A stretch of DNA of 50,286 nucleotides from a virus. Its lineage: Duplodnaviria > Caudoviricetes. How positions within the stretch are numbered: the first letter of the stretch is position 1; each line of letters begins with the position of its first letter. Shown here one piece after another: positions 978 to 49,662 of the stretch. The notes beneath the pieces were generated by a model that did no database searches, was not told where the DNA came from, and saw nothing but the letters and a program-made list of their open reading frames with translations. Where the stretch lies: IMG/VR virus record IMGVR_UViG_3300020043_006108, positions 1-50,286 of that record. The stretch is one strand, 5' to 3'. Both the position numbers and the translations under genes were made by a program.

Positions 978-985
978 TATCTTTG
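978..985 (+). promoter_or_regulatory. Bacteroidota -7 promoter box (TATCTTTG)
   Basis: Matches TAnnTTTG; the same box precedes the homologous leader at 49151. Confidence 0.65.
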
Positions 986-988
986 TTC

Positions 989-1141
989 TGCCCAAAGGGG
1001 CCGCCGTCTGGTAAACGGTTGTAATTAGATTCACAATATTTTCAACGAATGCCCTTGATCGGGGCGGGTTTGTAGGGTGTGAATCCCCTACTTTATTGGC
1101 ATACCAACGCCGCCCCTCCGATCAAGGGCATTTCCATTTTT
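989..1141 (+). ncRNA. Structured leader RNA (C4/CI-like antisense or attenuator), copy A
   Basis: 5' hairpin CCGT-CTGGTAA-ACGG; long stem AATGCCCTTGATCGG/CCGATCAAGGGCATT enclosing GTAGGG/CCCTAC and GGC-ATACCAAC-GCC hairpins, then a U-rich tail. Conserved at 49162-49315 with a different-sequence inner hairpin. Confidence 0.7.
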
Positions 1142-1148
1142 AGTCGGT

Positions 1149-1625
1149 ATGAAAAACATAAGTATCGCAAAAGGTCAGATAGTTGTTGATAAAACAACAG
1201 GGTGCAGGGGCACTGTCTTGGAAGTCGTCGGAGACATGGTTCGCGTTCACAGCAAAGAAAACAGTATGCGCACAAGCGGTGACGGGTACCCGTGTCCAAT
1301 CGAGTACACAACATCCGCCCTGGATTTCACAGTAGAGTTTTCTGAACTAACAGACTACACTCCATATCCGTGGCACAGGAAAAACATTGTCTGCAAAACA
1401 GAATTTGGAAACGAGGCAGAACACTGGGTGCTTGGTGCTGACGGAACGGAATTGGCGTGTTGCGACAACTTCCACGATGCCGACCTTATGGCGTCGTCTA
1501 TTGATCTGCTTATTGCGGCAAAGGCGGCGCTTGCAGCACTGTCACAAAACGCCATATTCCCCGCCGACATAACCGCCGCGAAAAAGTGGCTATCGGACGC
1601 AATCGCCAAAGCCGAAACCGTTTAA
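1149..1625 (+). CDS. Hypothetical protein downstream of leader RNA A
   Basis: 158 aa ORF; C-terminal ~40 aa similar to the C-terminus of 48858-49118. Confidence 0.75.
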   Translation: MKNISIAKGQIVVDKTTGCRGTVLEVVGDMVRVHSKENSMRTSGDGYPCPIEYTTSALDFTVEFSELTDYTPYPWHRKNIVCKTEFGNEAEHWVLGADGTELACCDNFHDADLMASSIDLLIAAKAALAALSQNAIFPADITAAKKWLSDAIAKAETV

Positions 1626-1644
1626 CTCACACTCACTTTGCACT

Positions 1645-2469
1645 ATGTCAGGACAAATACACCGCCGCAAAAAGAACAAAGATTTTGTCATTTTAGACAC
1701 TCATTGCCTCCGAAATCCGGCGCTAAAATGGGATGCAAAAGGGCTTCATTCGTACCTTATGCAGTTGCCGGATGACTGGAAAATCAACATTTCAGACCTT
1801 ACAAACAGAAGTAAAGACGGAACCGAAGGGACTTCCACGCCGATGAACGCGCTAATAAAAGCGGGTTACGTGAAAAGAATTAAGGTTTTAGGTGAAAGGG
1901 GGCGGTTTGCTGGATATGATTACGAGGTTTTTGAGCATCCGCAAGCACAGGAAGTACAGCCGGAACCGCAACCCGAAATAGACACCACCGTAACCGGCTT
2001 TTCCGTACACGGTAAAACCGTAAACGGGGAATCCGTAAACGGGAAACCCGGTACTAATAAGGATGAAGAGAGTAAGGATGAAGGGTACATATATAAAGCG
2101 CACACGCAAGAAAACGAATTACCGCCTCCCAAAAGCCCAAAAATAGAAACAGCCGACGAAGCCCGTACCGCAATCAACGCCTGGCTAAACGACGGCAACG
2201 AGGAAACGGTAAAACTTTGGTATTCAGAGTTGAAAATAAACTACAACCGGGGCGAATTTAAAACCGTGCTGATAAAGTTTTGCTCCAACTACATGACTTC
2301 CTCCGATGAAGGATTTGTTCAAAGATTCCAAAAAGACCCGGTGAAGTTTTTCCGCAATCGGTTTCAAATATTTTTACCAACGTGCCGGGGTTTTGACGCG
2401 AAGCAATCAACTAAACCGGCACCATCACAAAACGGGGCGGTTTACACGCCACCGGCAAAACGATTTTGA
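1645..2469 (+). CDS. Phage replication initiator (N-terminal HTH-like domain, internal iterons), variant A
   Basis: AKGLHSYLMQLPDDWKIN..DL..RSKDG...L..AGY is typical of phage Rep N-termini; iterons lie mid-gene; DnaB is just downstream. Confidence 0.8.
   Translation: MSGQIHRRKKNKDFVILDTHCLRNPALKWDAKGLHSYLMQLPDDWKINISDLTNRSKDGTEGTSTPMNALIKAGYVKRIKVLGERGRFAGYDYEVFEHPQAQEVQPEPQPEIDTTVTGFSVHGKTVNGESVNGKPGTNKDEESKDEGYIYKAHTQENELPPPKSPKIETADEARTAINAWLNDGNEETVKLWYSELKINYNRGEFKTVLIKFCSNYMTSSDEGFVQRFQKDPVKFFRNRFQIFLPTCRGFDAKQSTKPAPSQNGAVYTPPAKRF
1988..2042. repeat. Four iterons, consensus CCGTA(A/C)(A/C)CGG, at a 15-bp period (putative origin A)
   Basis: CCGTAACCGG 1988, CCGTACACGG 2003, CCGTAAACGG 2018, CCGTAAACGG 2033; a purine/A-rich tract follows. 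Confidence 0.75.
2170..2290. repeat. 121-nt exact repeat of the window end (50166-50286)
   Basis: Base-by-base identity; near-identity extends back to ~2130/50126. Confidence 0.9.
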
Positions 2470-2472
2470 AAG

Positions 2473-2646
2473 ATGGAAAAATTGTATCTCGTATTCGTGG
2501 GCGGAAAACTTGCGCCATGGGAACTTCGGAATAAATGGGGGAGCCTTGTTAGGCGCAGGAAAAGAGCGTGGAGCCTAACAAAATGGGCAGATACAAACGG
2601 ATATACCGTAGAGATAAACTACAACCCGAAATACGAAACGCAATGA
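2473..2646 (+). CDS. Small hypothetical protein, 57 aa (MEKLYLVFVGGK...YETQ; not in ORF track)
   Basis: Fills the rep-dnaB gap; its TGA overlaps the ATG at 2643. Confidence 0.55.
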   Translation: MEKLYLVFVGGKLAPWELRNKWGSLVRRRKRAWSLTKWADTNGYTVEINYNPKYETQ

Positions 2647-4073
2647 CCCACCCATACGCAAAAGTCCAACCCCAGGCAATCCCACTCGAACAAGCCGTAC
2701 TTGGTGCGCTTATGCTCGACCGTGAAGCCGTGTTACAGGTTGTTGATCTGCTAAGCCCGGAGAGTTTCTATTTGGATTCTCACCAACTGATTTACAAAGC
2801 AATCGTTTCGCTTTTCAACAGATCGGAGCCGGTTGATTTACTGACCGTCACGGAAGAGTTGAAAAAGTCGGGCGATCTTGAAAAGGTCGGGAATGCTTAC
2901 TACCTGATTGAGTTGTCAAATCAAGTAGCCAGTTCGGCGAATATTGAATATCACTCCCGGATCATTCAGGAAAAGTGGATGCAAAGGAGGCTGATAGAAA
3001 CCGGGAGTATCATTTTGCGGGATGGTTTTTCAGACGAAATAGACGTGTTTGAGCAGATTGAAGCCGCCGAAAAATCCATCTACGAAATCACAGCCGGAAC
3101 GAACAAGAAGGACGCAAAATCGGCAAAAGACATAAGCCGGAAGGTTTTACGGAACATCGAAGCAGCGGTAAAGAAAAGAGAATCGGGAGGCGTTACGGGT
3201 GTGCCTACGGGGTTGAGCGATATAGACCAAAAAACGGGCGGGTTGCAAAATTCGGATTTGATAATTATTGCAGCCAGGCCCGGCATGGGAAAAACTGGAC
3301 TTGCAATGTCAATAGCACTAAGGGCGGCCCAACAGGATAGCGCCGTCGGTATTTTCTCCCTGGAAATGTCTGAAACGCAGTTAATGGCCCGATTGATCGG
3401 CGGCGAAAGCGGGGTTTCTTCCAACCGCATGATGAGCGGCGATGTAAAGGAATACGAATGGGGGCAATTACAAACCACAATAGAGGGGTTTGATAGCCTG
3501 AAACTTTACATTGACGATACGGCAGCCATATCCGTTACCGCGTTAAGAGCAAAGGCCCGAAGGATGAAAATGAAGTACAATATTTCGCTGGTAATTGTAG
3601 ACTATTTGCAGTTAATGAAGTCCAGCGAAAAAGGAGGAAACAGAGAGCAGGAAATTTCCCGGATCAGTCAGGGGCTAAAGGCGCTTGCTAAAGAATTGGA
3701 CATTCCTGTTATTGCGCTGTCTCAACTTTCCAGAGCGGTCGAAACAAGGGGCGGAAGCAAGCGACCCCAACTGTCAGACCTTCGTGAGAGCGGTAGTATT
3801 GAGCAGGACGCGGATATAGTAGCGTTTATTTACCGCCCCGAATATTATCAGATTTTAGAAGATGAAAATGGAAGAAGCCTAAAAGGTATCGCAGAGATCA
3901 TTTTTGCAAAACACAGGAACGGCGGGATTGGAACGGTTGAGGTTGAATTTGAAGAACAGTTTGCAAGGTTCTCTGACATTAAAACCGGGCAATTCCCAAC
4001 CACAGCGCCCTATTCTCCATCGGCGGGGATAACGGCAAACCGCAGAGAAAACGATGAGGATATACCGTTTTGA
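2643..4073 (+). CDS. dnaB: Replicative DNA helicase DnaB
   Basis: PQAIPLEQAVLGALM N-domain, Walker A AARPGMGKT, FSLEMS, IVDYLQLM, ALSQLSR, SDLRESGSIEQDAD, KHRNG. Start moved to ATG 2643. Confidence 0.97.
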   Translation: MTHPYAKVQPQAIPLEQAVLGALMLDREAVLQVVDLLSPESFYLDSHQLIYKAIVSLFNRSEPVDLLTVTEELKKSGDLEKVGNAYYLIELSNQVASSANIEYHSRIIQEKWMQRRLIETGSIILRDGFSDEIDVFEQIEAAEKSIYEITAGTNKKDAKSAKDISRKVLRNIEAAVKKRESGGVTGVPTGLSDIDQKTGGLQNSDLIIIAARPGMGKTGLAMSIALRAAQQDSAVGIFSLEMSETQLMARLIGGESGVSSNRMMSGDVKEYEWGQLQTTIEGFDSLKLYIDDTAAISVTALRAKARRMKMKYNISLVIVDYLQLMKSSEKGGNREQEISRISQGLKALAKELDIPVIALSQLSRAVETRGGSKRPQLSDLRESGSIEQDADIVAFIYRPEYYQILEDENGRSLKGIAEIIFAKHRNGGIGTVEVEFEEQFARFSDIKTGQFPTTAPYSPSAGITANRRENDEDIPF

Positions 4074-4090
4074 AAATACTTTCACAAATA

Positions 4091-4122
4091 CTTGCACGGT
4101 AATATTTTGCCGCTTACCTTTG
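4091..4122 (+). promoter_or_regulatory. Promoter CTTGCACGGTA...TACCTTTG
   Basis: Same 11-mer and the same 20-nt TTG-to-TAnnTTTG spacing as 43363 and 43862. Confidence 0.7.
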
Positions 4123-4138
4123 ACGAAAATCCGAAACA

Positions 4139-4342
4139 ATGACATGCAAGCAATTCACCGAATTAAAACCCGGAACTCATTTTTGGGGCAAATTTGAAGG
4201 CGGAATGGCCGTATTTTTTAAAGATTGCTACAACTGCATTTATATATGTGGTGGATGGGAAGGATCATTTCATTGCGACAAAATAGAATTTGTTTCCATC
4301 ATCGAAAACCCAAACCCTGAAACCGAAACGTATTACAAATAA
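4139..4342 (+). CDS. Hypothetical protein
   Basis: Follows the promoter at 4091-4122. Confidence 0.65.
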   Translation: MTCKQFTELKPGTHFWGKFEGGMAVFFKDCYNCIYICGGWEGSFHCDKIEFVSIIENPNPETETYYK

Positions 4343-4353
4343 AATTAAACAAG

Positions 4354-6585
4354 ATGAATGAGTACGAGCAATTCATTGCAACCAAGAAAAAGCACTTTTT
4401 AGCGTCCGGTTTTGACGTTGAAAATTCAGACCTGAACAAAAACCTTTTTGATTTTCAGCAGTACGTTGTAAAGACCGCAATCAAAAAAGGAAAGTATGCA
4501 ATCTTCGCCGATTGCGGATTAGGGAAAACCCTTATGCAATTAGAGTTTGCAAATCAGGTTTCCCAAAAAACGGGAAAGCCGGTTCTGATACTTTGTCCCC
4601 TGGCGGTTGCCGGGCAGACAAAACAAGAGGCGCTTCGTTTCGGGATAGGCCCCATTTGGAGTTATGACCCGGCGAGAATGAATGGCAATCCAATTCAGCC
4701 CAAAATCTACATTTCCAATTACGATCAACTCGAAAACATCGACACGGAAAAATTTTCCGGCGTTGTGCTTGACGAATCGAGCGTACTGAAGAACTTTGAA
4801 GGCAAGACCCGAACCGCGATCATTGAAGCGTTTGCAAACACTCCTTACAAACTCGCTTGCACGGCTACGCCATCGCCAAACGACCCAATGGAATTAGGTA
4901 ATCACTCCGAATTTCTGAACGTAATGAGCCGCAATGAAATGCTGGCAATGTACTTTGTCCACGACGGCGGCGATACTTCAAAATGGAGGCTGAAAGGCCA
5001 CGCAGCGCAGCCGTTTTGGGATTGGGTTTCTGAATGGGCGGTGATGTTTTCCAATCCTTCCGACATTGGATTTTCTGCCGATGGGTACGTCCTTCCCGGT
5101 TTAAATTTACTGGATCGTCAAATTGTGACCGGCGGAAGAAATAACGGGAAACTGTTCAATGACGTACACGTATCGGCAACGGACTTCAACGCTGAACTTC
5201 GCCTTACCAAAGTAGAAAGACTTTCCGAAGTGGTTGGTATTGTAAATGATTCAGACGAAAACTTTATCATTTGGATTAAGCAAGATGAGGAAGGCGATTA
5301 CCTGAAAAAATTAATCCCCGACGCTATCGAGGTGCGGGGCAGTCACTCACAGGAATTTAAAGAAAGGCATCTTTTGGGATTTGCTAAAGGCGAATTTCGG
5401 GTACTGATTACCAAAACCAAAATTGCGCAGTTCGGGCTGAACTATCAAAACTGCCGCAACCAAGTATTTGCATCATTAGACTTTTCCTTTGAGGGGCTTT
5501 ACCAGGCAATCCGCAGATCGTACCGTTTTGGCCAAAAAAACGAGGTTAATATCTACATGATCACAACCGACACCATGCAAAACGTGGTGCAGTCCATCCA
5601 AAGAAAACAGGATCAATTTGAAAAAATGCAAACGGCAATGAGTAAAGCCGTAAACCTTAACCGCGCAAACAAACAAAAAATGGAACGCCAATTTGAAGAA
5701 TACAAAACCGAAAATTGCACCGTTCAATTGGGCGACTGCGTCAGGTTGATTGAAAACGTAAAAGATGAATCGGTAGGGCTTACGGTTTTCAGCCCGCCAT
5801 TTGCAGAACTTTATACCTATTCCGACCAGGTAGAGGATATGGGTAACAGTAAAGACTATAACGAATTTATGTTTGCGTTTTCGTTCCTCGTTAAAAACCT
5901 CTTCCGGGCAACTATTACAGGCAGAAACGTTGTGGTTCACTGCATGGATTTGCCAATCCAAAAAGGCAAGGAGGGCGTCATTGCGCTGAGGGATTTTTCT
6001 GGCATGATTATCAAAGCGTTTGCCGATGCCGGGTTTGTTTATCACTCCCGCGTTACATTATGGAAAAACCCCGTTACTGAAATGCAAAGAACAAACGCCC
6101 TGGGTCTACTTCATAAGCAAATCAAAAAGAATGCTGCAATGTCACGGGTTGGGATACCCGATTATCTTTTGGTTTTCAGGAAAGACGGTGACGCGGTTAG
6201 CCCTGTAACGCACCAAGATACCGACCCATCAAAACCAGATTATCTGCCTGTTAATTTGTGGCAGAAATACGCTTCTCCCGTCTGGATGGACATTGACTAC
6301 GGAGACACGTTGAACGTTCGCCAGGCGCGTGAAGAAGAAGACGAAAAACACATCTGCCCATTACAGTTGGGAACAATCGAACGAGCCATACACCTTTGGA
6401 GCAACGAGAATGATTTAGTTTTAGATCCGTTCGGAGGGATCGGAAGCACGGGATTTAAAGCGCTGCAAATGAAAAGACGTGCATTGATGTTCGAGTTAAA
6501 GAAATCGTACTTTGATGTCAATGTAAGAAACTGCAAAGCAGCGGAAGCAAAGAACAGCCAGGCGGTTTTGGAATTTAGTTTTTAG
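4354..6585 (+). CDS. SNF2/SF2 helicase-like domain fused to a beta-class N4-C/N6-A DNA methyltransferase
   Basis: ADCGLGKT, LDESS, TATP and QAIRRSYRFGQ helicase motifs; C-terminal FSPPF (motif IV) precedes VLDPFGGIGST (SAM binding). Confidence 0.85.
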   Translation: MNEYEQFIATKKKHFLASGFDVENSDLNKNLFDFQQYVVKTAIKKGKYAIFADCGLGKTLMQLEFANQVSQKTGKPVLILCPLAVAGQTKQEALRFGIGPIWSYDPARMNGNPIQPKIYISNYDQLENIDTEKFSGVVLDESSVLKNFEGKTRTAIIEAFANTPYKLACTATPSPNDPMELGNHSEFLNVMSRNEMLAMYFVHDGGDTSKWRLKGHAAQPFWDWVSEWAVMFSNPSDIGFSADGYVLPGLNLLDRQIVTGGRNNGKLFNDVHVSATDFNAELRLTKVERLSEVVGIVNDSDENFIIWIKQDEEGDYLKKLIPDAIEVRGSHSQEFKERHLLGFAKGEFRVLITKTKIAQFGLNYQNCRNQVFASLDFSFEGLYQAIRRSYRFGQKNEVNIYMITTDTMQNVVQSIQRKQDQFEKMQTAMSKAVNLNRANKQKMERQFEEYKTENCTVQLGDCVRLIENVKDESVGLTVFSPPFAELYTYSDQVEDMGNSKDYNEFMFAFSFLVKNLFRATITGRNVVVHCMDLPIQKGKEGVIALRDFSGMIIKAFADAGFVYHSRVTLWKNPVTEMQRTNALGLLHKQIKKNAAMSRVGIPDYLLVFRKDGDAVSPVTHQDTDPSKPDYLPVNLWQKYASPVWMDIDYGDTLNVRQAREEEDEKHICPLQLGTIERAIHLWSNENDLVLDPFGGIGSTGFKALQMKRRALMFELKKSYFDVNVRNCKAAEAKNSQAVLEFSF

Positions 6586-6602
6586 TGTTTACATTTACAC
6601 CA

Positions 6603-6685
6603 CAATCGTACGAGGATTGATAAGAAATGGTGCCGCGCTTTCCTTGTAACTCGTGCTTGCAGGGTTTGTGCGGCACTTAAATTTT
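6603..6685 (+). promoter_or_regulatory. Kissing-loop leader element (loops GTACGAG / CTCGTGC)
   Basis: CAATC-GTACGAG-GATTG hairpin, then a GTGCCGCGC..GTGCGGCAC stem enclosing CCTTGTAA-CTCGTGC-TTGCAGGG; near-consensus -7 box TACATTTA at 6590. Confidence 0.55.
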
Positions 6686-6690
6686 AAAGG

Positions 6691-7068
6691 ATGCCCGACA
6701 TAACAATGTGTTCCAACCAAGAATGCCCACAGGCCGATAACTGTTGGCGCTTCGGATGCCCACCGTCGGCACGGAATCAATATTATCAGGACTTCCAACC
6801 AAAGCAAGACGACGACGATGGTTTTATGTGCGACTTTTTTATTGAATACCCGCCACTGCCTGAAATCACACCACAGCGCGCCTTGTCTCACCAATGCGGA
6901 GAAATAGGAACGCTTACGACTGAAATAATGGCGCTGCACTGGTTTAGGTTGTACAACGACCAACTGCCGCCCGAAGAAATCCAGATCGTTAAAAACCTGC
7001 TTTCCAATATTGCAATCCGGGTTTCGGACGCGATAAGGATGTGCGGGGAAATTGAAAAAATGAAATGA
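6691..7068 (+). CDS. Hypothetical protein with Cys-rich N-terminus
   Basis: PDITMC...CP....C.RF motif seen in small phage proteins. Confidence 0.7.
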   Translation: MPDITMCSNQECPQADNCWRFGCPPSARNQYYQDFQPKQDDDDGFMCDFFIEYPPLPEITPQRALSHQCGEIGTLTTEIMALHWFRLYNDQLPPEEIQIVKNLLSNIAIRVSDAIRMCGEIEKMK

Positions 7069-35411: not shown

Positions 35412-35969
35412 ATGGCTATTTGCGTAACCACCATGCCCGCCGCCGGTGCGGATTTATGTAACTTCAATCTACATTTTGGCAGGATTGACGCTTTTTTATA
35501 TACCCGTGCAGAGGCGACCGACGTGCTGGATGACGCTACCGACGCGGCAGAGTGGGCAGACCGGATAAGCAACTCCTCGGCCCTTACGGCATCCGGTACG
35601 CCAGCGCCTATTCGTTACCATTACGTTATCGGAGAGTGGCCGCTACCCGAACGGACGGAAATCGAAGTAAGCGCAGGCCGCACTTCTTACAGCGCCGCAA
35701 AGCACTCCCTTACTCTGGATATTGACGACACGGGTACAACCAACACCGCGCTACTGGCAACCGAACAAGCCACCACAAAACGCCGTCGCGTCTGGATTAT
35801 CGCAGACGGTCAATTGCATGGCGGTGCAAGCGGCTACCTGATGGACGTAACCTATTTGGGCCTCATCATTCCACGGGTAAAAACTGAAAAGCAAATCATC
35901 CAGGTCGGTTTGAAGTACGAAGGAAACCAAACCGCACCTATTACGTCCGTCGTGCCCATCTTCTCATAA
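35412..35969 (+). CDS. Major tail tube protein candidate
   Basis: 185 aa, beta-rich; start context AAACAAACACTATGGCTAT is identical to that of the capsid gene. Confidence 0.6.
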   Translation: MAICVTTMPAAGADLCNFNLHFGRIDAFLYTRAEATDVLDDATDAAEWADRISNSSALTASGTPAPIRYHYVIGEWPLPERTEIEVSAGRTSYSAAKHSLTLDIDDTGTTNTALLATEQATTKRRRVWIIADGQLHGGASGYLMDVTYLGLIIPRVKTEKQIIQVGLKYEGNQTAPITSVVPIFS

Positions 35970-35970
35970 A

Positions 35971-36258
35971 ATGGTAAATACAGAGTGGACTATTAAGCAA
36001 ATAATGCGTTCACCTGTTGCACTTGTTTTTCTGGGGTTTCTGCTTACAGTTATCGCTGTGCTGTGCAGGGTGATTATGATTCAAGACAATAAAATTGACC
36101 GACAACAAACACAGTTGATTGTATGCAAAGAGGAAGCGGCCCTAATTATCGGGCAACAAAAGGACGAGTACATAAAAATGCTCATCAAGTTCCGTTCGGA
36201 GCAGGATTCCACCCGGTCAATGATCGGGAGGCTGAACGAAAAAAGAAAAAGAAAATGA
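35971..36258 (+). CDS. TM plus coiled-coil protein (holin/spanin-like)
   Basis: One N-terminal TM segment followed by a coiled coil. Confidence 0.55.
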   Translation: MVNTEWTIKQIMRSPVALVFLGFLLTVIAVLCRVIMIQDNKIDRQQTQLIVCKEEAALIIGQQKDEYIKMLIKFRSEQDSTRSMIGRLNEKRKRK

Positions 36259-38496: not shown

Positions 38497-38535
38497 CGGG
38501 GCTGCTCTCACATTGAGGCAGCCCCGTTTTTATTT
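38497..38535. terminator. Terminator between convergent blocks
   Basis: CGGGGCTGC..GCAGCCCCG followed by TTTTT. Confidence 0.8.
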
Positions 38536-38731: not shown

Positions 38732-38917
38732 TTAAAATGGCAAAATGTCGTTTCGGATAACGAGCGGTTTTTTCAATTCGCTAACGTTTTTTGAATCGTA
38801 GAGAGTGAATGGAACGGAAGTAAGCAGCGACATTTGCTGTGTTGCCTGTTTTTCTCCAGATGCAAGTATAAAGGCAAAATGTCCGTCTACACTGTCTTTG
38901 AATTTGTAGATTCTCAT
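38732..38917 (-). CDS. Hypothetical protein
   Basis: ATGA overlap with the HNH gene. Confidence 0.6.
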   Translation of the reverse strand: MRIYKFKDSVDGHFAFILASGEKQATQQMSLLTSVPFTLYDSKNVSELKKPLVIRNDILPF

Positions 38918-39573
38918 CGTTTATGTTTTTCGCGTTTCGATTTCCCTTCCTCGTTTCGGGTTAGAAAATCCTTAACCTGATCTGTTGGCCGGGTTTCTGT
39001 TTTTGCGCCGAATCTGCCAGCGCCGTACCCGGTTAGCCAACATTGGTACTTGTCGGGGTTGAACATTATAACGTCTTCTGTGATGGGTGCTTTGATGCTA
39101 TTCAGCCTGGCATATTCCCCAAAGTGTAAAGTTGCCGCATCGTTATAGGCCAGAGCAGCAGACCTTGCATCTGTATACAAGCCTAAGTGCATGTGCCTGC
39201 CGCCAACCCAGATAGAAGCCCGCCATTTTTTTAGATTTTTGTTCCATTGAACACCCTTGTACCCGGTTTTGTTCTTTTTAGACAAGCCCATGTTTCTTGA
39301 ATTTTCCGCATGCGTTGCCGCCCTTAGGTTTTCTCTTCTATTGTCAAGCGGGTCTCCATTTATGTGATCTACAAGCACTTTCGGGTCTGTAATATCCATT
39401 ATTTGCCTATGCATAAGCAAAAGGCGGCTGTTTGGGCCTCTCCTTTCCGCTCTAAATTTTTCTTTAATACCAAAACCGCACCTTGACGCGCACCACTTGA
39501 ATTTAATAAGAGTTTCATAATCGTCATCGTCTACAAGTGCGACCTTTCCGCGAGTGAGATTTATCTGCTTCAT
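38914..39573 (-). CDS. HNH endonuclease with AP2 DNA-binding domain
   Basis: ALVDDDDYE, VDHINGDPLDNRRENLR...N, TGYKGV.W...KWRASI..HLG.Y...A..AYN.AA..HFGEYARLN. Confidence 0.92.
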   Translation of the reverse strand: MKQINLTRGKVALVDDDDYETLIKFKWCASRCGFGIKEKFRAERRGPNSRLLLMHRQIMDITDPKVLVDHINGDPLDNRRENLRAATHAENSRNMGLSKKNKTGYKGVQWNKNLKKWRASIWVGGRHMHLGLYTDARSAALAYNDAATLHFGEYARLNSIKAPITEDVIMFNPDKYQCWLTGYGAGRFGAKTETRPTDQVKDFLTRNEEGKSKREKHKR

Positions 39574-39685
39574 AAAAAACGAATGCGCCAATCAAAAACC
39601 GGCGTGTACAAGACGCGGGCAATGAATGGCGCAATTTATCTTTTCCGGTCTTGTACCCCGGCTGCCGATTGGCTATACGAAGATA
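39574..39685 (-). promoter_or_regulatory. Promoter-like box (TATCTTCG) plus kissing-loop leader (GTACAAG / CTTGTAC)
   Basis: On the - strand: CCGG-GGTACAAGA-CCGG hairpin; GCGCCATTCA..TGATTGGCGC stem enclosing GCGT-CTTGTAC-ACGC; U-run just before the ATG. Confidence 0.6.
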
Positions 39686-39689
39686 GCGA

Positions 39690-40127
39690 TTATTTTAATA
39701 ACCCCCAAACAAAAAGAGCACCGTAATAAAAAAAGCACCCGTTCAAAATCCACAGCAAACACATGAAAACGAGCGCAAACGGTACAGCGATTATCCAATA
39801 TGTTTCTGTGTGCCCCTGACCCTTGTAAAAGTCTGCCCTGAGCGGTCTGATTTGATCGTGAAACCATTGCTCCAGAGCATAGGCAAAAAATGTCGGCACA
39901 AAGAAAACGGGTATCGGGATTCCTGGCATATCATTGTTCACGCTTTTTTGCCGCTTGCCTATTCCTGAATGCGTACCCGTGTATCCATATTTGCAAAAGA
40001 TAATGAACGGGAAATTTATCATTAGATAGTTTATTCCGAAGCCAAAAAACGGGCTTATTTTCGGGGGCGCGAACGGCTTTTTGTGGGCGGGCGACTTTCG
40101 GTATTTACGCTTCATTACCACCCCCAT
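39690..40127 (-). CDS. Membrane protein
   Basis: Several hydrophobic segments; start uncertain. Confidence 0.55.
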   Translation of the reverse strand: MGVVMKRKYRKSPAHKKPFAPPKISPFFGFGINYLMINFPFIIFCKYGYTGTHSGIGKRQKSVNNDMPGIPIPVFFVPTFFAYALEQWFHDQIRPLRADFYKGQGHTETYWIIAVPFALVFMCLLWILNGCFFYYGALFVWGLLK

Positions 40128-40402
40128 TTTTTGTGCATATCACTTGCCCACTGACGCTTCCCGTCCTCCTTTATCTTTTCCGTCGCTTCCCGCCTCTTAT
40201 TATAGGTTTCCACTTCCAGCCGTTTCACCTCTTGCCGATAGGCCATTTCTGAATCCTCTCGCTCTTTTCTCCGTCTTTCAGATTCAAGATAAGCCTTTGT
40301 ATACTCGTCGTTTCTTCTCTCTACGTTGACCGCCACCATTAAATTGTGCCATTCGTCGGCGCTCATTCCGGGCCTATACATCCTATCAAAAACGGTTGTC
40401 AT
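40115..40402 (-). CDS. Charged coiled-coil hypothetical protein
   Basis: Leftward operon packing. Confidence 0.65.
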   Translation of the reverse strand: MTTVFDRMYRPGMSADEWHNLMVAVNVERRNDEYTKAYLESERRRKEREDSEMAYRQEVKRLEVETYNKRREATEKIKEDGKRQWASDMHKKWGW

Positions 40403-40863
40403 ATTCCATTGTTTTGCCCACCATTTCCCTGGTAGTTATTTTGATAATAATTATTTATAACCGTTGGCCCTGATTTTGGCCGGTACTCCGAACCCGAACC
40501 GCCTCCCGAAAACGCCGAAACTACAAGCATCGCAAGAAAAAACACAACCGCTGCAACGACCGCGACCGCAATATACGGAGCAGCAAACGCAATGATAGTA
40601 GCCCCGTTTGTGATAACAACAGCGCACCCGGTAATTACCGGAGCGGCAATTAAAACGCGCTTCAATTCCACGCTCACCACCTTTTCGCTTTGCGGAATTT
40701 CCGCAGGCTTTGGAGGCGGAACGTACGGAACCGCCGGGCGCGTTTTGATAACTTGGTACTGCGCATAAACGGAATCCGGGGACATAGGGCCGCGCTGGAT
40801 AACCGGAAATTCCGTAACCATTGCGTTCTCCATGTCTTTTTTCAGGTTGTCAAATTCCGTCAT
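40399..40863 (-). CDS. 2-TM membrane protein
   Basis: Hydrophobic hairpin and an N/Q/G-rich tail. Confidence 0.7.
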   Translation of the reverse strand: MTEFDNLKKDMENAMVTEFPVIQRGPMSPDSVYAQYQVIKTRPAVPYVPPPKPAEIPQSEKVVSVELKRVLIAAPVITGCAVVITNGATIIAFAAPYIAVAVVAAVVFFLAMLVVSAFSGGGSGSEYRPKSGPTVINNYYQNNYQGNGGQNNGI

Positions 40864-43790: not shown

Positions 43791-43861
43791 TTGCCCAAAA
43801 CATTGATTTTCTACCCTTTGTGTTTCCGTGTGAAAATATTTTCAAAATATATTGGTAATTG

Positions 43862-43893
43862 CTTGCACGGTATTAAAACACCCCGTACATTTG
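43862..43893 (+). promoter_or_regulatory. Promoter CTTGCACGGTA...TACATTTG (main early rightward)
   Basis: Shared motif and spacing with 4091 and 43363. Confidence 0.7.
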
Positions 43894-43921
43894 ACCTATC
43901 ATTCACACAAAAAAGAAGATC

Positions 43922-44119
43922 ATGCCGCCATTTTCTATTGAAAGGATTGCTAACCAATTTGGCGTTTCTGTGGAGCAATTGAAAAAGCAATACTTCAACA
44001 ACGCCTTACAACTTGAAAAAATGTACAAAAAGGCAATTGCAACAGGTAAAAAAGTAAATGGATTTACCGCCGATCAATTAAAAGCATATTGCACCGAATA
44101 CTACAATAAGGCAAAATGA
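43922..44119 (+). CDS. Small hypothetical protein, possible HTH
   Basis: SIERIANQFGVSVEQLKK. Confidence 0.65.
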   Translation: MPPFSIERIANQFGVSVEQLKKQYFNNALQLEKMYKKAIATGKKVNGFTADQLKAYCTEYYNKAK

Positions 44120-44763: not shown

Positions 44764-44775
44764 AAACGACCAATC

Positions 44776-45039
44776 ATGCAACACACTTTCCAACACACCG
44801 CCGAACTCGAAATCTTCCCCGAAAACATTGTGGAAGTCGAGTTAACCATCACCTACCAACACACCCCGCCCTCACGCGGTTCACGCGGCGCACATGGCGA
44901 ACCCGAAGAGCCGGACGAACAAGCGGAAATCGAAATTCTTTCCATCGTGGACGCGAACGGCAAAGAGTACCAGCCCTGGCTGGAAGGCATTTCTTTTCAT
45001 TCCCTTTGCTGGGATCACCTTGAAACTGTTGAGCAATGA
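44776..45039 (+). CDS. Hypothetical protein
   Basis: G.RG..G.P.EPDE..EIEI motif seen in phage early proteins. Confidence 0.7.
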   Translation: MQHTFQHTAELEIFPENIVEVELTITYQHTPPSRGSRGAHGEPEEPDEQAEIEILSIVDANGKEYQPWLEGISFHSLCWDHLETVEQ

Positions 45040-45377
45040 AACTCGAAATAGGCCAAAAGGTATTCGTCGAAGTGTTCAGGCACAGGGGCGAAATGGAAAT
45101 AAAAGAGTGTCAAATTACCAGAATTGGCAACAAGTATTTTTACCTGGATAGATACCAGGGCAAAGGTTTTGATAAACAGACCTTAAAATACGCCGATAAG
45201 CAGTACACACAACACAACCTGCAAGGCTATTTGAGCATTCAAGAAATCACAGACCGGCACGAAAAAGCCCATTTGCGCGAAGTTCTTAGAAAGCACTTTG
45301 ACACATGGGGCAACTCAAAAAACAATACACTCGAAGATCTGAAACAGGTATTTGAACTTTTGAAACCTACAATATGA
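45036..45377 (+). CDS. Hypothetical beta-barrel phage protein
   Basis: GQKVFV...ITRIGNKYFY. Confidence 0.7.
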   Translation: MKLEIGQKVFVEVFRHRGEMEIKECQITRIGNKYFYLDRYQGKGFDKQTLKYADKQYTQHNLQGYLSIQEITDRHEKAHLREVLRKHFDTWGNSKNNTLEDLKQVFELLKPTI

Positions 45378-45622
45378 ACATCCCAGAGCAAACATTCGAC
45401 GCCCACTTTGACGCGGGAAAAGCCATCCAAAACAAATCCGGCTACTCCCTCATGCGAATACAGGTATTTGCGCCCCGATGGGAAACGGAGCCTACCATTG
45501 AATTTTGGCTTTTCAACCCAGACGGCGAAAAGATCGGGCAAATAGACGGGAAAGAAAACGAAGCCATTGCCATTGCCGCTTTGGCGGGGATTGAAAACCA
45601 TTATAACGAAAAGGAACAATGA
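45374..45622 (+). CDS. Hypothetical protein
   Basis: ATGA overlaps. Confidence 0.65.
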   Translation: MNIPEQTFDAHFDAGKAIQNKSGYSLMRIQVFAPRWETEPTIEFWLFNPDGEKIGQIDGKENEAIAIAALAGIENHYNEKEQ

Positions 45623-46428
45623 AAAGCGAAATCACAAAACAAGAAGCCGGGATAACCGCAGCGCAAATCGAAACGCTGGCGAAAGCATCCGTAATCCCGG
45701 CGGGGCTGCCCGCTGATGTTTTGCAGGTGTTTATGATAACCTGCAATCAACACGGTCTTTCGCCCTTTAAAAAAGAGATATACCTGATCCCATACAAAGG
45801 GAAATACAGCGCGGTTGTGGGCATCGACGGACTAAGGGCGAAGGCAGCAAGAACGGGAATGCTTGCCGGAAGAGACGACGCAAAATTCGACCTTATGCCG
45901 GACGGCACATTCAAAACAGCCGCACAACTGGCTGCTGTAAACAAAAAGCCTATTTCCTGTACTGTGGCCGTTTACCGCGCCGTTGGTGGAATGCGCTGCC
46001 CGTTCTCCAAAACCGTCCTTTTTTCCGAATACTGCCCGGCGAAGTCTGACGAATGGAGCAAGTGGAATACAATGCCGTTTAACCAAATCGAGAAATGCGC
46101 GGAAGCCGCCGCGCTTCGGATGGCGTTCGCAGATGAAACGGCGGGGTTGCATGTTGAGGAGGAAAGTGCAGCGATGCAAGACATTACCATACAAGCGGCC
46201 GCGCACAACCCGGCAGCAGCAGTAGACGAAAAGGCTTTAGAGGATCGAATTTCAAAGGTTTTCAACAAACACGTCCTTTGGGAAATCTACAATGAAAACC
46301 CGGCGCATAAAACCGACTTCGCCCACATATTCAGCAACCGGCAGGATGAAATAAAATCCATGATCGAAGGCGGGCAAATGACACTGGAAACATGGGAAGC
46401 GAAGCCCGAAAAAACCATTGCAATATGA
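45619..46428 (+). CDS. RecT/Bet-like single-strand annealing protein
   Basis: GLSPFKKEIYLIPY, VGIDGLR..A.RTG, W..MP..QIEKCAEAAALRMAF. Confidence 0.9.
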   Translation: MKSEITKQEAGITAAQIETLAKASVIPAGLPADVLQVFMITCNQHGLSPFKKEIYLIPYKGKYSAVVGIDGLRAKAARTGMLAGRDDAKFDLMPDGTFKTAAQLAAVNKKPISCTVAVYRAVGGMRCPFSKTVLFSEYCPAKSDEWSKWNTMPFNQIEKCAEAAALRMAFADETAGLHVEEESAAMQDITIQAAAHNPAAAVDEKALEDRISKVFNKHVLWEIYNENPAHKTDFAHIFSNRQDEIKSMIEGGQMTLETWEAKPEKTIAI

Positions 46429-47201
46429 ACGCAATAACACACCTTTCGTTCTCCCGTTTGGGCGAATTGGAACACAGCCCTTCGGCACTGAAAAAGTACA
46501 TGGAGGGTTCACGATCCGCAACCGCAGCAATGAACGAAGGCAGCCTTTTAGATTGCCTTTTATTCGAGCCGGAAAAACTGGAAAGCCGCTTTTTGATTAT
46601 CGACAAAGTGAGCAAAGCAACAAAAGAAGGCAAGGCGCTTTTTGCCGACGCACTCGAAAATGCCAACGGTCGCACGATAATGAACCGGGAGCAATACGAC
46701 GAACAAAAGTTTATCTGCACTTGCATCGAAGCCAACGCAACCGTTTTGCACCACGGACTTTTGAGGCGCGACGACACCGACGGTTTTAAATTTCAGGTGC
46801 CAGTAGACTTTTTTTACCACGGATTCAAGCACCGGGGCATCAAAGACGCAGATGGATACGACCGCAACGGAAACCGGGTAATTTGGGACTTAAAAAGAAT
46901 GGCGTCCCGATCCGGCGAAAGTCTTGTTCGGTCGCAGATTCGCATTATGGGCTACGATTTGCAGGCGGCTATTTACTGTTGGCCTTTGGATGAAAAAAAC
47001 GAGCCGGTTAAATATTACATTCTTGCAGTAGATAACGAGGGCTATGTAACACCATTTGAAGTCACACGCGATGCAAGAGAAAAGGCCCGGATACGATGGA
47101 ACAAATTAATTAAAGCCGCTCACCAGATCAATATGGAGCCACACTTATTGGATTCAGGTTGTGAGTTTTGGGCGGGTAGCGAAGGCTTTTTTAATTTTTA
47201 G
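46425..47201 (+). CDS. PD-(D/E)XK exonuclease (RecE/ExoVIII-like)
   Basis: LSFS.L, GS..DCLL.EPE, G..D...IWDLK, GYDLQAAIY; coupled to the RecT-like gene. Confidence 0.8.
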   Translation: MNAITHLSFSRLGELEHSPSALKKYMEGSRSATAAMNEGSLLDCLLFEPEKLESRFLIIDKVSKATKEGKALFADALENANGRTIMNREQYDEQKFICTCIEANATVLHHGLLRRDDTDGFKFQVPVDFFYHGFKHRGIKDADGYDRNGNRVIWDLKRMASRSGESLVRSQIRIMGYDLQAAIYCWPLDEKNEPVKYYILAVDNEGYVTPFEVTRDAREKARIRWNKLIKAAHQINMEPHLLDSGCEFWAGSEGFFNF

Positions 47202-47213
47202 CCCAATAAAGCA

Positions 47214-47498
47214 ATGAAAAAGCAATACCATAAAAACAAAGCCGCGAAAGTAGGCGACAGATGTATTTGCCCATCCTGCAATACTTTGTTCGTAAAGGTT
47301 TCTTATCAGCAGGCATTTTGTAAAATACAAGGCGGCACGGTCTGCAAGGACAAGTACTGGAATACCGTTACACCCGAAAAAAGAAACAACACAACACGAA
47401 TAAGCCCCGCAAACGCAGCATGGAAAAAGCAAATGGAGGATGAAGAAATATTCCATGATGACGATATGGGGTGGGATGCACACAAAAACAGTTTCTAA
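47214..47498 (+). CDS. Small zinc-finger-like protein
   Basis: CPSC...F.K..YQQAFC......CKD.YWN. Confidence 0.75.
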   Translation: MKKQYHKNKAAKVGDRCICPSCNTLFVKVSYQQAFCKIQGGTVCKDKYWNTVTPEKRNNTTRISPANAAWKKQMEDEEIFHDDDMGWDAHKNSF

Positions 47499-47500
47499 TT

Positions 47501-47575
47501 ATGAGCGCAGCGAAATTCGACTTGGAATCTGGGTGTGAGTTTTGGGCGGGTAGCGAAGGGTTTTTTAACTTTTAA
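47501..47575 (+). pseudogene. 24-codon chimera: NinB-like 5' end fused in frame to a second exonuclease 3' end
   Basis: MSAAKFDLESGCEFWAGSEGFFNF* versus MSAKFQIE (47946) and LDSGCEFWAGSEGFFNF* (47148-47201). Confidence 0.7.
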
Positions 47576-47586
47576 ACTGATTAGGA

Positions 47587-47949
47587 ATGACACTGCAAGA
47601 TTTGGCAATTAGCCACCCGTACTATTCGAGTGATAGTAACTACTATTCAAAAGATGCCGCACAAACGCATGAAACGTGGCAGGGGTTTTACGAAGGTGAA
47701 AAGAACTTGGATATCGACCTGAATCTTTGTTTTCGTTTCGATGTGAAGCATGATGAAGAGACAGGTCTTTATTGTGCGTACGTTTTCATTATTCAACAGC
47801 GAAAAGGAATTTACCGACCCGTCACAATTTCTTCAGTCACGGAAGAAGACGTTCCGACAATGATCGAATACCTGCAAAGGCATTACGATAAAATCAAGGA
47901 ACTTTGGCAGCCATTTTCATCGATAAATTCAAGTATGATTGGTTTATGA
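47587..47949 (+). CDS. Hypothetical phage protein
   Basis: HPYY....NYY, D.DLN..FR.D, QRKG and W.PF motifs. Confidence 0.75.
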   Translation: MTLQDLAISHPYYSSDSNYYSKDAAQTHETWQGFYEGEKNLDIDLNLCFRFDVKHDEETGLYCAYVFIIQQRKGIYRPVTISSVTEEDVPTMIEYLQRHYDKIKELWQPFSSINSSMIGL

Positions 47950-48446
47950 GCGCAAAATTCCAAATAGAAAAAATCTCCGGTCAATTCACCCAGCAAAGCC
48001 GCGCCATACTAAAAGAACAATTCTCCGCCCCGCCAGACGGAAAGCACGACGTATTGACCACACCGGCAAGGGGCTACAATCCGAAAAGGTATGCCTTCTA
48101 TTTTGACAGCGTCCTTTGGCAAATCCCGAATGAAGTCGGGCGCTTTTACCTGATTGTCAACCCGTCCACCGGAGAGCAGCGAACACCACGCGATACAACC
48201 GAACTGCACGAATGCATGAAGGCGATTTACAACCCCGTTACGCTGACGGTCGGAAACAAGACGCGGGTAATCGCCGGAACGACAACCGACCTAAACAACA
48301 AGGAGTTTATCGGAGAATTTTTAGAATCAATCATTTCCGATCATTCCGGGCCACCCTACAATATCGAGTTTATTGGCTACGAAGACTGGAAAGAACTTCA
48401 CCGGGCGAACGCCTGGATTAATTTTAAAAACACTTACAAAAAATGA
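47946..48446 (+). CDS. NinB/Orf-like recombination-associated protein
   Basis: FYF..VL..I, ELHE.MK, TT.L..KEF...LE.I; start at the ATGA overlap. Confidence 0.55.
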   Translation: MSAKFQIEKISGQFTQQSRAILKEQFSAPPDGKHDVLTTPARGYNPKRYAFYFDSVLWQIPNEVGRFYLIVNPSTGEQRTPRDTTELHECMKAIYNPVTLTVGNKTRVIAGTTTDLNNKEFIGEFLESIISDHSGPPYNIEFIGYEDWKELHRANAWINFKNTYKK

Positions 48447-48643
48447 AAGACGTTTTTGCATTGATCGAAGAAAACAAATTAACCGGCGAAGGCTTTGTAA
48501 GGGGCCAAACAACCGATGGGCAAAAAGGACTGGATTGGGCAAAAGAAAACGCCCAAAAGTCGGCAGCGTTTGTAAAGACCGGCACCGGCTTTGCAACAAA
48601 AGGAAGCGCATTCGATGTAATCAATAAAAGCGAATTGAAATGA
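48443..48643 (+). CDS. Hypothetical protein, allele of 95-295
   Basis: Near-colinear with 95-295. Confidence 0.8.
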   Translation: MKDVFALIEENKLTGEGFVRGQTTDGQKGLDWAKENAQKSAAFVKTGTGFATKGSAFDVINKSELK

Positions 48644-48861
48644 CAACCGAAAAAGCCAAACCCGGCCCAAAGCCCACAGGGAAAGCCAGAATTTCACGCG
48701 GCATCTCGTTTCGCGCGGATCATTTCGAGTGGCTGGATCAATACGAAGACCGGAGCGCAGTGGTGCAAAAGGCGCTAAGTATTCTCATTCCGCTCGAAGA
48801 AATGCAGGAATGGGAAGCAATCGAAGCAATTAAATCAAACTTTCAAAACCTGAAAAAATGA
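48640..48861 (+). CDS. Putative ribbon-helix-helix DNA-binding protein
   Basis: KPGPKPTGK then ISRGISF-RADHFEWL-RSAVVQKAL. Confidence 0.6.
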   Translation: MTTEKAKPGPKPTGKARISRGISFRADHFEWLDQYEDRSAVVQKALSILIPLEEMQEWEAIEAIKSNFQNLKK

Positions 48862-49118
48862 ACGGTAACGCAAAAGAGATACCGCTTTGGCGTGCAATGC
48901 CTGAACTGATCGAAGCGAAAATTTCCAAACTGGAACAGGGAAAGCACGACCTTTTGAAGCAGGTTGCAGCCAACCACAAGAGCGTAAACACGCCTGAACT
49001 TCTCCACGCCGCCAAATCCGCACTCGAAATCCTGTCAAAGACCGCAATTTTTCCGCAGGACATTGAAGCCGTGCGAAAGATGCTGGCGGAGGTTATAAAA
49101 AAATCTGAAACCGTTTAA
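48858..49118 (+). CDS. Hypothetical protein resembling the 518-739 N-terminus and the 1149-1625 C-terminus
   Basis: Alignment by eye. Confidence 0.7.
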   Translation: MNGNAKEIPLWRAMPELIEAKISKLEQGKHDLLKQVAANHKSVNTPELLHAAKSALEILSKTAIFPQDIEAVRKMLAEVIKKSETV

Positions 49119-49150
49119 AATAAACCCTTTCATTATTAAAAATAACGCAT

Positions 49151-49315
49151 TATCTTTGTCATGCCCAAAGGGGCCGCCGTCTGGTAAACGGTTGTAAAAG
49201 GAAGATTCAATTTTTAAGCAAATGCCCTTGATCGGGGCGGGTTTTCGAGATATTTCCTTTTCTCGATTTATTGGCATACCAACGCCGCCCCTCCGATCAA
49301 GGGCATTTTTATTTT
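49151..49315 (+). ncRNA. Promoter box TATCTTTG plus structured leader RNA, copy B
   Basis: Core identical to 989-1141; the inner hairpin is TCGAGA/TCTCGA instead. Confidence 0.7.
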
Positions 49316-49323
49316 CAGTCGGT

Positions 49324-49662
49324 ATGGCAAATAGTCAATATAAGGCAATGATTAAGGATATTAATCAAGAGCGTAAAGAGTTTTACCGCAATGGCAAATC
49401 CGCACTTTACACCGATTGCGGGATGACTTACACACGCTTTATCCCGGAGTTTCAAAAGTGGATAGCGTTCAGAAACCCTAAAAAACATTTCCATAAAGAA
49501 TTTCGGGATTACTGCGAATTTTACGGCGAACGAATAGACAAGCCCTCCGTGAGGGACTTTTGCGAGTTTCACTACTTTGATTTTTCAATGCCCGAAAACT
49601 CCTGCGAGTTTTGCCCGGATGGCGACGCGCTGACAAAATATTTTCAAGACGAAAGACTATAA
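49324..49662 (+). CDS. Hypothetical protein downstream of leader RNA B
   Basis: AGTCGGTATG start context identical to 1149. Confidence 0.65.
   Translation: MANSQYKAMIKDINQERKEFYRNGKSALYTDCGMTYTRFIPEFQKWIAFRNPKKHFHKEFRDYCEFYGERIDKPSVRDFCEFHYFDFSMPENSCEFCPDGDALTKYFQDERL

Follow-up and report, generated by a model that had tools for sequence, protein, structure and literature searches.

The subject of this analysis is a set of structured RNA elements in one tailed phage, the IMG/VR virus record IMGVR_UViG_3300020043_006108, which was taken as a single window: the entire record of 50,286 bases, linear and rated 97% complete. An initial annotation had described four leaders, here called L1 to L4, in which a TAnnTTTG-like promoter box precedes a small 5' hairpin, an A/U linker leads on to a long terminator-like stem ending in a U-rich tail, and an ATG comes last; in each, a loop inside the long stem is complementary to the loop of the 5' hairpin. 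These parts all lie where they had been placed, and a fifth element, missed at that time, stands at the end of an operon. We have very little doubt that the structures and their long-range contacts are real features of the RNA. More tentatively, and with a confidence that falls a little short of even, we read the elements as cis-folding, pseudoknotted leader-terminators, that is, attenuators heading the replication and middle operons in which pairing controls termination. They probably gate the early and replication genes.

Leaders L1 and L4 form a double pseudoknot

L1, on the plus strand, starts with a TAnnTTTG-type promoter box at 978-985 (the box coordinates of all four leaders were read by hand). 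Folding then predicts a hairpin of 4 base pairs (bp) with a 4-nucleotide (nt) loop, P0 (990-1001), two of whose four pairs are compensated in the relative L096, followed by the 5' hairpin H1 (1004-1018, loop 1008-1014) and, after the linker, by the terminator-like stem P1 (1047-1133, with arms 1047-1069 and 1112-1133; -50.4 kcal/mol). Inside P1 the predicted structure is a three-way junction bearing hairpin A (1072-1091) and hairpin B (1098-1111). The 3' end of the leader (1137-1151) consists of a U run at 1137-1141 and the ATG, at 1149, of an open reading frame (ORF) of 158 amino acids, behind which lie a DnaD-like loader gene and DnaB. The pairing originally noticed joins partner a in the H1 loop (1009-1013) to 1102-1106 by 5 bp (-5.6 kcal/mol). 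A second and stronger pairing, overlooked in the initial annotation, joins segment b of the linker (1028-1035) to the loop of hairpin A (1078-1085) by 8 bp (-9.6 kcal/mol).

L4, also on the plus strand, repeats this plan. Its TAnnTTTG-type box at 49151-49158 is followed by a predicted P0 (49163-49174) and H1 (49177-49191, loop 49181-49187), which together occupy 49163-49191, and by P1 (49220-49308, arms 49220-49242 and 49287-49308; -47.8 kcal/mol), within which hairpin A (49245-49266) and hairpin B (49273-49286) are predicted. Partner a (49182-49186) pairs with 49277-49281 by 5 bp, and segment b (49196-49204) pairs with the hairpin A loop (49253-49261) by 9 bp, one of them G.U. The U tail and the ATG (49309-49326) lead into a 112-amino-acid ORF that starts at 49324, with a replication-initiator-like gene behind it. 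In both leaders the contacts follow the order a, b, b', a', which makes a nested double pseudoknot on a three-way junction. L1 and L4 are 83% identical copies, and their identity begins exactly at the promoter box, so that the four leaders represent three independent types, as had been claimed. Hairpin A is wholly different between the two copies, with a stem that is fully compensated.

Some further observations concern these two leaders. There is a Dam-type site in each arm of the L1 and L4 stem. The letters just before the ATG (1141-1148 and 49316-49323) are identical in both and pair with the 5' half of H1 in minimum-energy folds, a candidate contact that we rejected because it is absent in the relatives L143 and L096. 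L4 and L1 are direct repeats flanking a segment of about 1.9 kb (49324-50286 plus 1-966) that is absent from the metagenome relative L065, where the homologue of 47946-49150 abuts an L1-type element and the gene starting at 1149. Positions 50088-50286 are about 92% identical to part of the loader gene at 1645-2469, and the phage thus carries two paralogous modules of leader, small ORF and initiator.

Leaders L2 and L3

L2 and L3 each have a -33-type TTTG 19-20 nt upstream of the box. In L2, on the plus strand, this TTTG (6567-6570) is separated by a 19-nt spacer from a TAnnTTT-type box (6590-6597), the last letter of which is off consensus. The predicted 5' hairpin (6603-6619) has a 5-bp stem and a 7-nt loop (6608-6614), and the terminator-like stem (6629-6677, arms 6629-6638 and 6668-6677; -28.9 kcal/mol) encloses an inner hairpin (6642-6664) whose 7-nt loop (6650-6656) pairs with the 5' loop by 7 bp including one G.U (-8.5 kcal/mol). 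An A/U tail and the ATG (6678-6693) follow, the latter at 6691 opening a 125-amino-acid ORF with a RusA-like resolvase gene behind it. The lone G.U becomes a Watson-Crick pair in the near-identical relative L033, and at the syntenic position in several related loci the same architecture recurs with different letters and a pairing of 6-9 bp.

L3 lies on the minus strand and occupies 39574-39709 when its -33-type TTTG (39709-39706) and its box (39685-39678, one letter off consensus) are included. The loop segment 39656-39650 of H1 (39661-39645) pairs by 7 bp with the loop (39612-39606) of an inner hairpin (39616-39602) held between the P1 arms (39633-39623 and 39594-39584). A U run (39579-39574) directly precedes the ATG at 39573 of an HNH-AP2 endonuclease gene. 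This gene, at 38914-39573 on the minus strand, has HNH_3 and AP2 domains; with L3 upstream of it and the fifth element downstream, it looks like a self-contained, possibly mobile, cassette.

The loop complementarities reported earlier are thus correct for all four leaders (5 bp in L1 and L4, 7 bp in L2 and L3). The leaders also fold better than shuffled sequences (z of -4.4, -4.9, -3.4 and -3.4).

A fifth element at an operon end

The fifth element occupies 38644-38550 on the minus strand. A predicted closing stem, P1, of 6 bp (38644-38639 with 38560-38555) holds two arms, the first at 38637-38624 with its loop at 38633-38628, and the second at 38619-38562 with its apical loop at 38594-38589; a U run follows at 38553-38550. 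The two 6-nt arm loops are perfectly complementary, both arms lie inside the closing stem, and the G.U pairs of the element are possible only on the minus strand. It has neither a promoter box nor a gene behind it; the module can therefore occur outside leaders. Its position is past the HNH gene and some small ORFs, where a minus-strand operon meets the end of the plus-strand late operon. That long late operon is itself closed by a plain strong hairpin with a U run (38497-38531, plus strand), and the phage therefore uses ordinary terminators as well.

Terminator character and strand

The terminator-like stems have energies of -23.5 to -50.4 kcal/mol, and their tails fit the canonical U-rich form. 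A U run begins 0-4 nt past the stem in L1, L3, L4 and the fifth element, while the tail of L2 is a weaker mixture of A and U. They share with intrinsic terminators a G+C-rich stem that has a U-rich tract immediately behind it on the transcribed strand. They are not simple small-loop hairpins, since their interiors span 18-60 nt and contain one or two inner hairpins; a simple promoter/terminator scanner limited to loops of 3-8 returned counts at shuffle level and did not call the branched stems. The distance from stem to ATG is 13-30 nt, and 13-20 nt in L1 to L4. The G.U pairs and the U tails fit the gene strand only, and the elements examined have the orientation of the genes next to them, which supports their assignment as sense-strand RNA structures.

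Relatives and covariation

Relatives were gathered with the protein encoded at 4354-6585 (plus strand), an SNF2/DEAD-type helicase fused to an N6/N4 DNA methylase, which is 50-70% identical across 39 related viral loci. Pattern scans and a covariance model (R1) defined an L1/L4 family of 10 members from eight loci. In all ten the linker and the hairpin A loop of the same leader are complementary over 5-9 bp (at least 6 in nine of them), with ten different codes, against 13% of 90 non-cognate pairs that reach 6. The H1 and hairpin B loops likewise match by 5-7 bp in every member, with seven codes. For the linker contact the summed cognate score is 67.5 and the permuted mean 46.7, and none of 100,000 permutations reaches the observed value. 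The corresponding scores for the loop-loop contact are 55.0 and 42.4, with 11 of 100,000 permutations reaching the former (83 of 100,000 when the test is confined to the seven-code subset). Shuffling the loop letters reproduced the observed sum in 0 of 2,000 trials for both contacts.

Among the four closest members, five of the eight linker-loop pairs and five of the six pairs of the hairpin A stem change on both sides. The loop-loop helix of the initial annotation shows no such change in these four, and four of its six pairs are invariant, so that the evidence for it lies in the wider family alone. A further family (model R2, with an alignment fitted to nested helices only) consists of two paralogues 3 kb apart in a complete 52-kb record, G001, plus the loci L022 and L021. 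The two paralogues are 82% identical and differ at four of the six positions in each kissing loop, with all four changes compensated; over the whole family, two-sided changes affect four of six kissing pairs and 10 of 13 stem pairs. Homologues therefore keep their complementarity with different letters, through two-sided changes and above both permutation and shuffle controls, as expected for a pseudoknot or kissing contact. This bears out the proposal that the architecture is conserved rather than the sequence.

A pattern scan of viral sequences returned 13 stretches, five of them real elements and eight G+C-rich coding matches; the metagenome scan returned at least 120 stretches, with real elements at three loci among the matches listed. 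An exact 18-base pattern had no match in viral contigs, a pattern scan of genome contigs gave 0 matches, model R1 found nothing in 11 of 15 related virus records, and 14 kb of the Flaviaesturariibacter prophage relative showed no element. The relative L004 carries two double-contact elements (560-765 and 2431-2600), in the first of which both 5' partners are in hairpin loops, as against one in a linker.

A fast-evolving pairing cassette

The orthologue of L4 on a related metagenome contig, L143, allows rates of change to be compared within a single element. Its scaffold (box, P0, H1, stem arms, hairpin B and tail) is identical to that of L4 at 120 of 122 positions (98%). The linker and hairpin A, which make up the pairing cassette, agree at only 26 of 46 (57%), whereas the flanking genes agree at 429 of 465 (92%) and their third codon positions at 126 of 144 (88%). 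The cassette differs from the third positions with a Fisher p of 2e-5 and from the flank with one of 2e-9. It changes faster than near-silent sites while staying complementary, and the scaffold is more conserved than the coding flank. Diversifying selection, cassette exchange, or pressure against cross-pairing between paralogues in one cell are possible causes.

Chance matches and specificity

Short complementary segments are not hard to find in such a genome. Loose scans, which accepted weak hairpins and G.U pairs, returned many 5-8-letter matches inside genes, and one of them gave matches of at least 6.5 in four of 43 sites, compared with 3.8% of non-cognate pairs. We rejected these automatic scans as evidence, their signal not being separable from noise; 5-letter matches are common in them, so that the 5-bp match of L1 and L4 taken alone proves nothing. 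Sites were therefore defined blind to pairing: a strict box had to be accompanied by a stem of 7 bp or more ending in a U-rich tail and, within 45 nt, by an ATG-initiated ORF. This gave 19 sites from the window and 28 non-redundant loci. A match of at least 6 between the 5' hairpin loop and the stem interior occurs at five of the 19 (3.1% of non-cognate pairs), and a whole-leader match of at least 8 at seven of the 19 (6.2%). Six additional whole virus records replicated the result when sites in the stretches used before were left out of the count: three of the eight new sites match, against 1.8% of non-cognate pairs. Cognate pairing thus exceeds both the shuffled and the non-cognate controls.

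Within the window, each cognate pair scores highest in its own row of the pairing matrix, apart from the code shared by L1 and L4 and two one-way cross matches. One of these concerns the suggestion that L2 and L3 are similar enough to cross-talk, which holds in one direction only: the 5' loop of L2 pairs with the inner loop of L3 by 7 bp with one G.U, while the reverse combination gives 4 bp. The other joins the L4 linker to the hairpin A loop of L1, where six linker letters beside segment b (49205-49210) complement part of 1078-1085 by 6 bp (-5.3 kcal/mol), and these letters could either be left over from an L1-type code or allow a one-way cross contact. Elsewhere in the window the loop letters have no additional targets beyond chance numbers, the 7-mers being about as frequent as expected.

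Elements in cultured Flavobacterium phages

The architecture is also present in cultured phages. When 14 intergenic regions of Flavobacterium phage FCV-1 were folded, two were found to hold it: element 1 at 35876-35994, with an 8-bp loop-loop match, and element 2 at 40347-40456, where the match is 7 bp and both a strict box and a U8 tail are present. Element 1 occurs in 69 phage records, 67 of them at least 99% identical; its one 96% variant is that of FCOV-S2. Element 2 shows no differences in its structured part between FCV-1 and FCOV-S2. As cultured Flavobacterium columnare phages account for these 69 records, the design is directly testable.

Genome content and host

A family scan of 56 ORFs identified a tailed-phage gene set (terminase, portal, tape measure and tail fibre), recombination and methylation genes (a RecT-like gene, an exonuclease and a DNA methylase), replication genes (two replication-initiator/loader-like genes, DnaB and the SNF2-helicase/methylase fusion), a RusA-like resolvase and an HNH-AP2 endonuclease. 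No integrase, repressor or antiterminator family was recognised among these 56, many of which have no family at all; this agrees with the earlier remark that the phage has no recognisable repressor. The 113-amino-acid protein encoded at 45036-45377 (plus strand) matches Pfam Phage_ProQ_C_like with an E value of 2.7e-15. It could be a partner of the leader RNAs, because ProQ/FinO proteins bind terminator hairpins and aid RNA-RNA pairing; it has no relative among the related loci collected.

The host is probably a member of the Bacteroidota, judging from the TAnnTTTG-type boxes, which we take to be the promoter consensus of that phylum, from a prophage relative located in Flaviaesturariibacter amylovorans (of the Chitinophagaceae), and from the relatives among cultured Flavobacterium columnare phages. 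The helicase-methylase protein is 52% identical to its counterparts in Flavobacterium phages, with 85 Flavobacterium records matched. It also led to the relatives G004 and G005, which IMG/VR classes as proviruses, and at least part of this phage group is thus temperate. Near-identical DNA is common in wastewater and activated-sludge DNA runs from 14 studies. A search of GenBank phage DNA with L1 and its gene gave no match, and the 158-amino-acid protein behind L1, used as a query, found a single near-identical fragment.

A proposed mechanism

With 13-30 nt between stem and ATG and essential replication genes behind, read-through must occur, and this is probably where control is exerted. The stem arms share sequence with no alternative helix, which leaves the long-range contacts as the only conserved candidates for that control. 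Termination itself, the direction of the pairing effect and the nature of its modulator are what we infer beyond the structures.

We favour, as the initial annotation did, a scheme in which pairing in cis would give read-through, here by hindering completion of the stem, an argument from topology and analogy. Each leader would be transcribed from its own Bacteroidota-type promoter. The 5' partner (the hairpin loop, and in L1 and L4 also the linker) would be synthesised before the 5' arm of the stem, then the inner hairpins, and finally the 3' arm with the U tract; both partners being made before the 3' arm, the long-range helices can form first. They would then close a ring containing the 5' arm, and a stem of 10-22 bp should be hard to wind down to its base inside such a ring, so that the polymerase would read through into the genes. 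The 3' arm, still attached to the polymerase, presumably could not wind one or two turns round the ringed strand unless the tether wrapped back, and tethers of 10-15 nt appear too short for 22 bp. Antisense RNA kissing complexes are a known case in which closed loops prevent long helices from growing. Where pairing was prevented or too slow, the terminator would be completed and a short RNA released. The fifth element has both partners within its closing stem, whose strands the ring accordingly leaves out, so that the contact should help closure; there it would aid a weak 6-bp stem and favour termination, and this should fit an operon end, where termination is wanted.

There is some precedent for a decision element in or beside a classic terminator without an overlapping antiterminator helix. 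The HMP-PP riboswitch is reported to have its aptamer embedded in the terminator, so that structure sets termination without sequence overlap (PMC6478431), and structures placed upstream of terminators in 'tug-of-war' designs are reported to suppress termination provided that the spacer is short (bioRxiv 10.64898/2026.06.17.733018). The present elements differ from the HMP-PP aptamer in that the 'ligand' would be another part of the same RNA, with element-specific letters and no conserved small-molecule pocket evident.

A number of points weigh against this scheme. The linkers here, at 9-38 nt, are longer than the spacers of the 'tug-of-war' constructs that work. The relative L014 has a closing stem of only 5-7 bp round an 18-nt loop, and with so short a stem pairing should help closure, not hinder it. 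L3 can fold instead into a single long imperfect hairpin (39673-39585), which at -41.5 kcal/mol is more stable, places the 'kissing' segments in a continuous helix and is followed by its own run of five U; it is a possible second terminator upstream of the one described. FCOV-S2 differs from FCV-1 at five positions in element 1, none compensatory, one of them cutting the kiss from 8 to 7 bp and others weakening stems. Four sequencing runs showed no usable RNA ends: three RNA-labelled ones yielded scattered low-depth contigs only, and the raw-read run 0 reads. The direction of the pairing effect is left unfixed by the sequence, the ring argument is our own reasoning, and the contrast between partners inside and outside the stem comes from the single operon-end element. 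With so many ORFs that have no family, an unrecognised protein antiterminator is possible.

Alternative explanations

The last point leads to a rather different account, which we consider unlikely. Termination would be the default, the long-range pairings would merely brace a compact, nuclease-resistant RNA or its 3' end, and an unrecognised N-, Q- or p7-like antiterminator would provide read-through and a temporal cascade. The terminators are indeed very stable on their own (-50.4, -47.8, -28.9 and -23.5 kcal/mol), the same contact is found in the operon-end element where termination is wanted, L014 seems to need pairing for the closure of its stem, and the lambda late promoter with its 6S RNA has the same layout of a promoter, a short leader and a strong terminator. 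Among the early ORFs, too, many are without a family. Against this account, no antiterminator family was recognised in the scan of 56 ORFs. Bracing would explain covariation, but not a cassette that evolves faster than third codon positions, and it leaves unexplained why paralogues in the same genome bear different codes on one scaffold. A local promoter placed before a constitutive terminator would, moreover, only make a short RNA.

The initial annotation had proposed an RNA-only immunity system acting in trans. In such a system of immunity or exclusion, released leader RNA, or a part processed from it, would pair with the nascent leader that bears its code, whether on the same genome or an incoming one, and so reverse the decision of the terminator; specificity would be set by the hypervariable cassette. 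We regard this as doubtful. It would account for the contrast between the cassette (26 of 46) and third positions (126 of 144) inside a scaffold conserved at 120 of 122, and for paralogues bearing different codes; no protein repressor was seen in the ORF scan, and one-way cross-pairing is possible (L2 with L3, and the L4 linker with the L1 hairpin A loop by 6 bp). Against it, both partners are on the same released molecule and would occupy each other, no processing signal was found, the window holds no extra target sites above chance, and there is no match to C4-type Rfam families. No integrase was seen either, and a resident state is not evident, though two relatives are classed as proviruses. 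Equally doubtful, in our estimate, is a mixed form in which the cassette is an address code and the element an RNA-only switch: a genome's own code would be read in cis, and RNA of the same code from a resident or competing genome would jam it in trans.

That the complementary loops pair between molecules, giving leader RNA dimers or rings like the phi29 packaging RNA (pRNA) or cages like those of ROOL and GOLLD, seems very improbable. pRNA is laid out as a three-way junction that leaves two complementary loops free, and a covarying kissing loop of ROOL first read as a tertiary contact proved to be intermolecular (bioRxiv 10.1101/2024.12.08.627333), from which it follows that covariation alone cannot tell intramolecular from intermolecular contact. 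Here, however, there are five elements per genome, before an ATG or at an operon end, in place of one dedicated gene; the cis contact is within reach of the linker, with tethers of 10-23 nt following segment b; the order a, b, b', a' is nested, as in one folded molecule; and Rfam gives no pRNA match.

Scarcely credible, finally, is a DNA-level feature (an origin, a recombination or module-boundary repeat, a protein operator) or a set of chance matches: L1 and L4 do flank the 1.9-kb segment absent from L065 and precede paralogous replication-initiator genes, and an A/T-rich linker with a stem that is a long inverted repeat would suit such a role, but the G.U pairs work on the gene strand only, the elements examined are oriented like the genes next to them, with U tails confined to that strand in most cases, the covariation of loop letters with unpaired partners tens of bases off fits RNA, and chance is excluded by the permutation and shuffle controls.

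Relation to known RNAs

The C4 RNA of P1 and P7 and the CI RNA of P4 are small phage RNAs made from the leader that they control, in which two pairs of short complementary segments determine whether termination or translation takes place. Their specificity between related phages lies in a few compensated letter changes, and the C4 segments underlie P1/P7 heteroimmunity. The present elements would resemble these RNAs as leader attenuators with paired codes. They differ in that the loop partners lie inside the terminator stem and pair with the upstream leader, not over a downstream ribosome-binding site as in C4, and in host phylum and promoter type. Kinship with the P1/P7 C4 or P4 CI RNAs, as the initial annotation had raised, is not borne out: Rfam 15 gave no match over the whole window at gathering score or at E values up to 10, with C4, c4-2 and c4-a1b1 included, and there was none either when L2, L3 together with the fifth element, and two 1-kb loci holding L1-type elements were scanned separately. 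Sub-threshold matches of mir- and snoRNA-type were set aside as noise.

Like phi29 pRNA, ROOL and GOLLD, the elements are phage-encoded and keep loop-loop complementarity while the letters change, and pRNA shares the three-way junction. Those RNAs form intermolecular rings or cages from a single gene, whereas here several leader or operon-end elements carry terminator tails; a phi29-type pRNA is further contradicted by the lack of an Rfam match and by the scatter of five elements across a genome that is siphovirus-like and encodes a tape measure protein.

The lambda late promoter yields 6S RNA and a terminator that is subject to Q, and the put RNAs of HK022 are two diverged copies behind two promoters. 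The present leaders share with those systems a strong terminator that lies no more than about 100-200 nt past a promoter and stands before essential genes. Unlike the lambda Q and N systems, no Q-like or N-like protein was recognised among the 56 ORFs, many without family, and we know of no pairing between a loop and the interior of a terminator in the lambda Q or HK022 put systems.

The fifth element, with two arms bearing complementary 6-nt loops on a short P1, recalls the purine riboswitch. Its P1 is followed directly by the U tract, it has no conserved junction core, and it does not match Rfam. More generally, a riboswitch would be expected to show a shared ligand core and metabolic genes. 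The families found here share architecture and no sequence, and the genes downstream of the elements encode replication proteins, a helicase, HNH and products of no assigned function.

Leader attenuators and RNA pseudoknots are well known. Within cis-regulatory leader-terminator RNAs, what is unusual is the addressing of the leader by inner loops, the hypervariable code and its occurrence in several unrelated sequence families. A full-text literature search found no terminator with inner loops addressed by an upstream leader, with element-specific letters, in sequence-unrelated families. A survey of IMG/VR lists 8,495 candidate structured RNAs and predicts terminators for 1,241 of them (PMC10690425); some of the present loci may be among the 8,495, without this interpretation.

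Significance

If the doubtful address-code proposal were true, related phages would escape one another by changing both halves of the code, in a protein-free form of exclusion or immunity, and it would explain why the cassette outpaces silent sites inside a near-invariant scaffold. If pairing does set termination, as we tentatively favour, the elements would be a compact, programmable transcription switch native to the Bacteroidota, a phylum with few genetic parts, and they would show how replication genes may be timed in phages that have no recognisable repressor or antiterminator.

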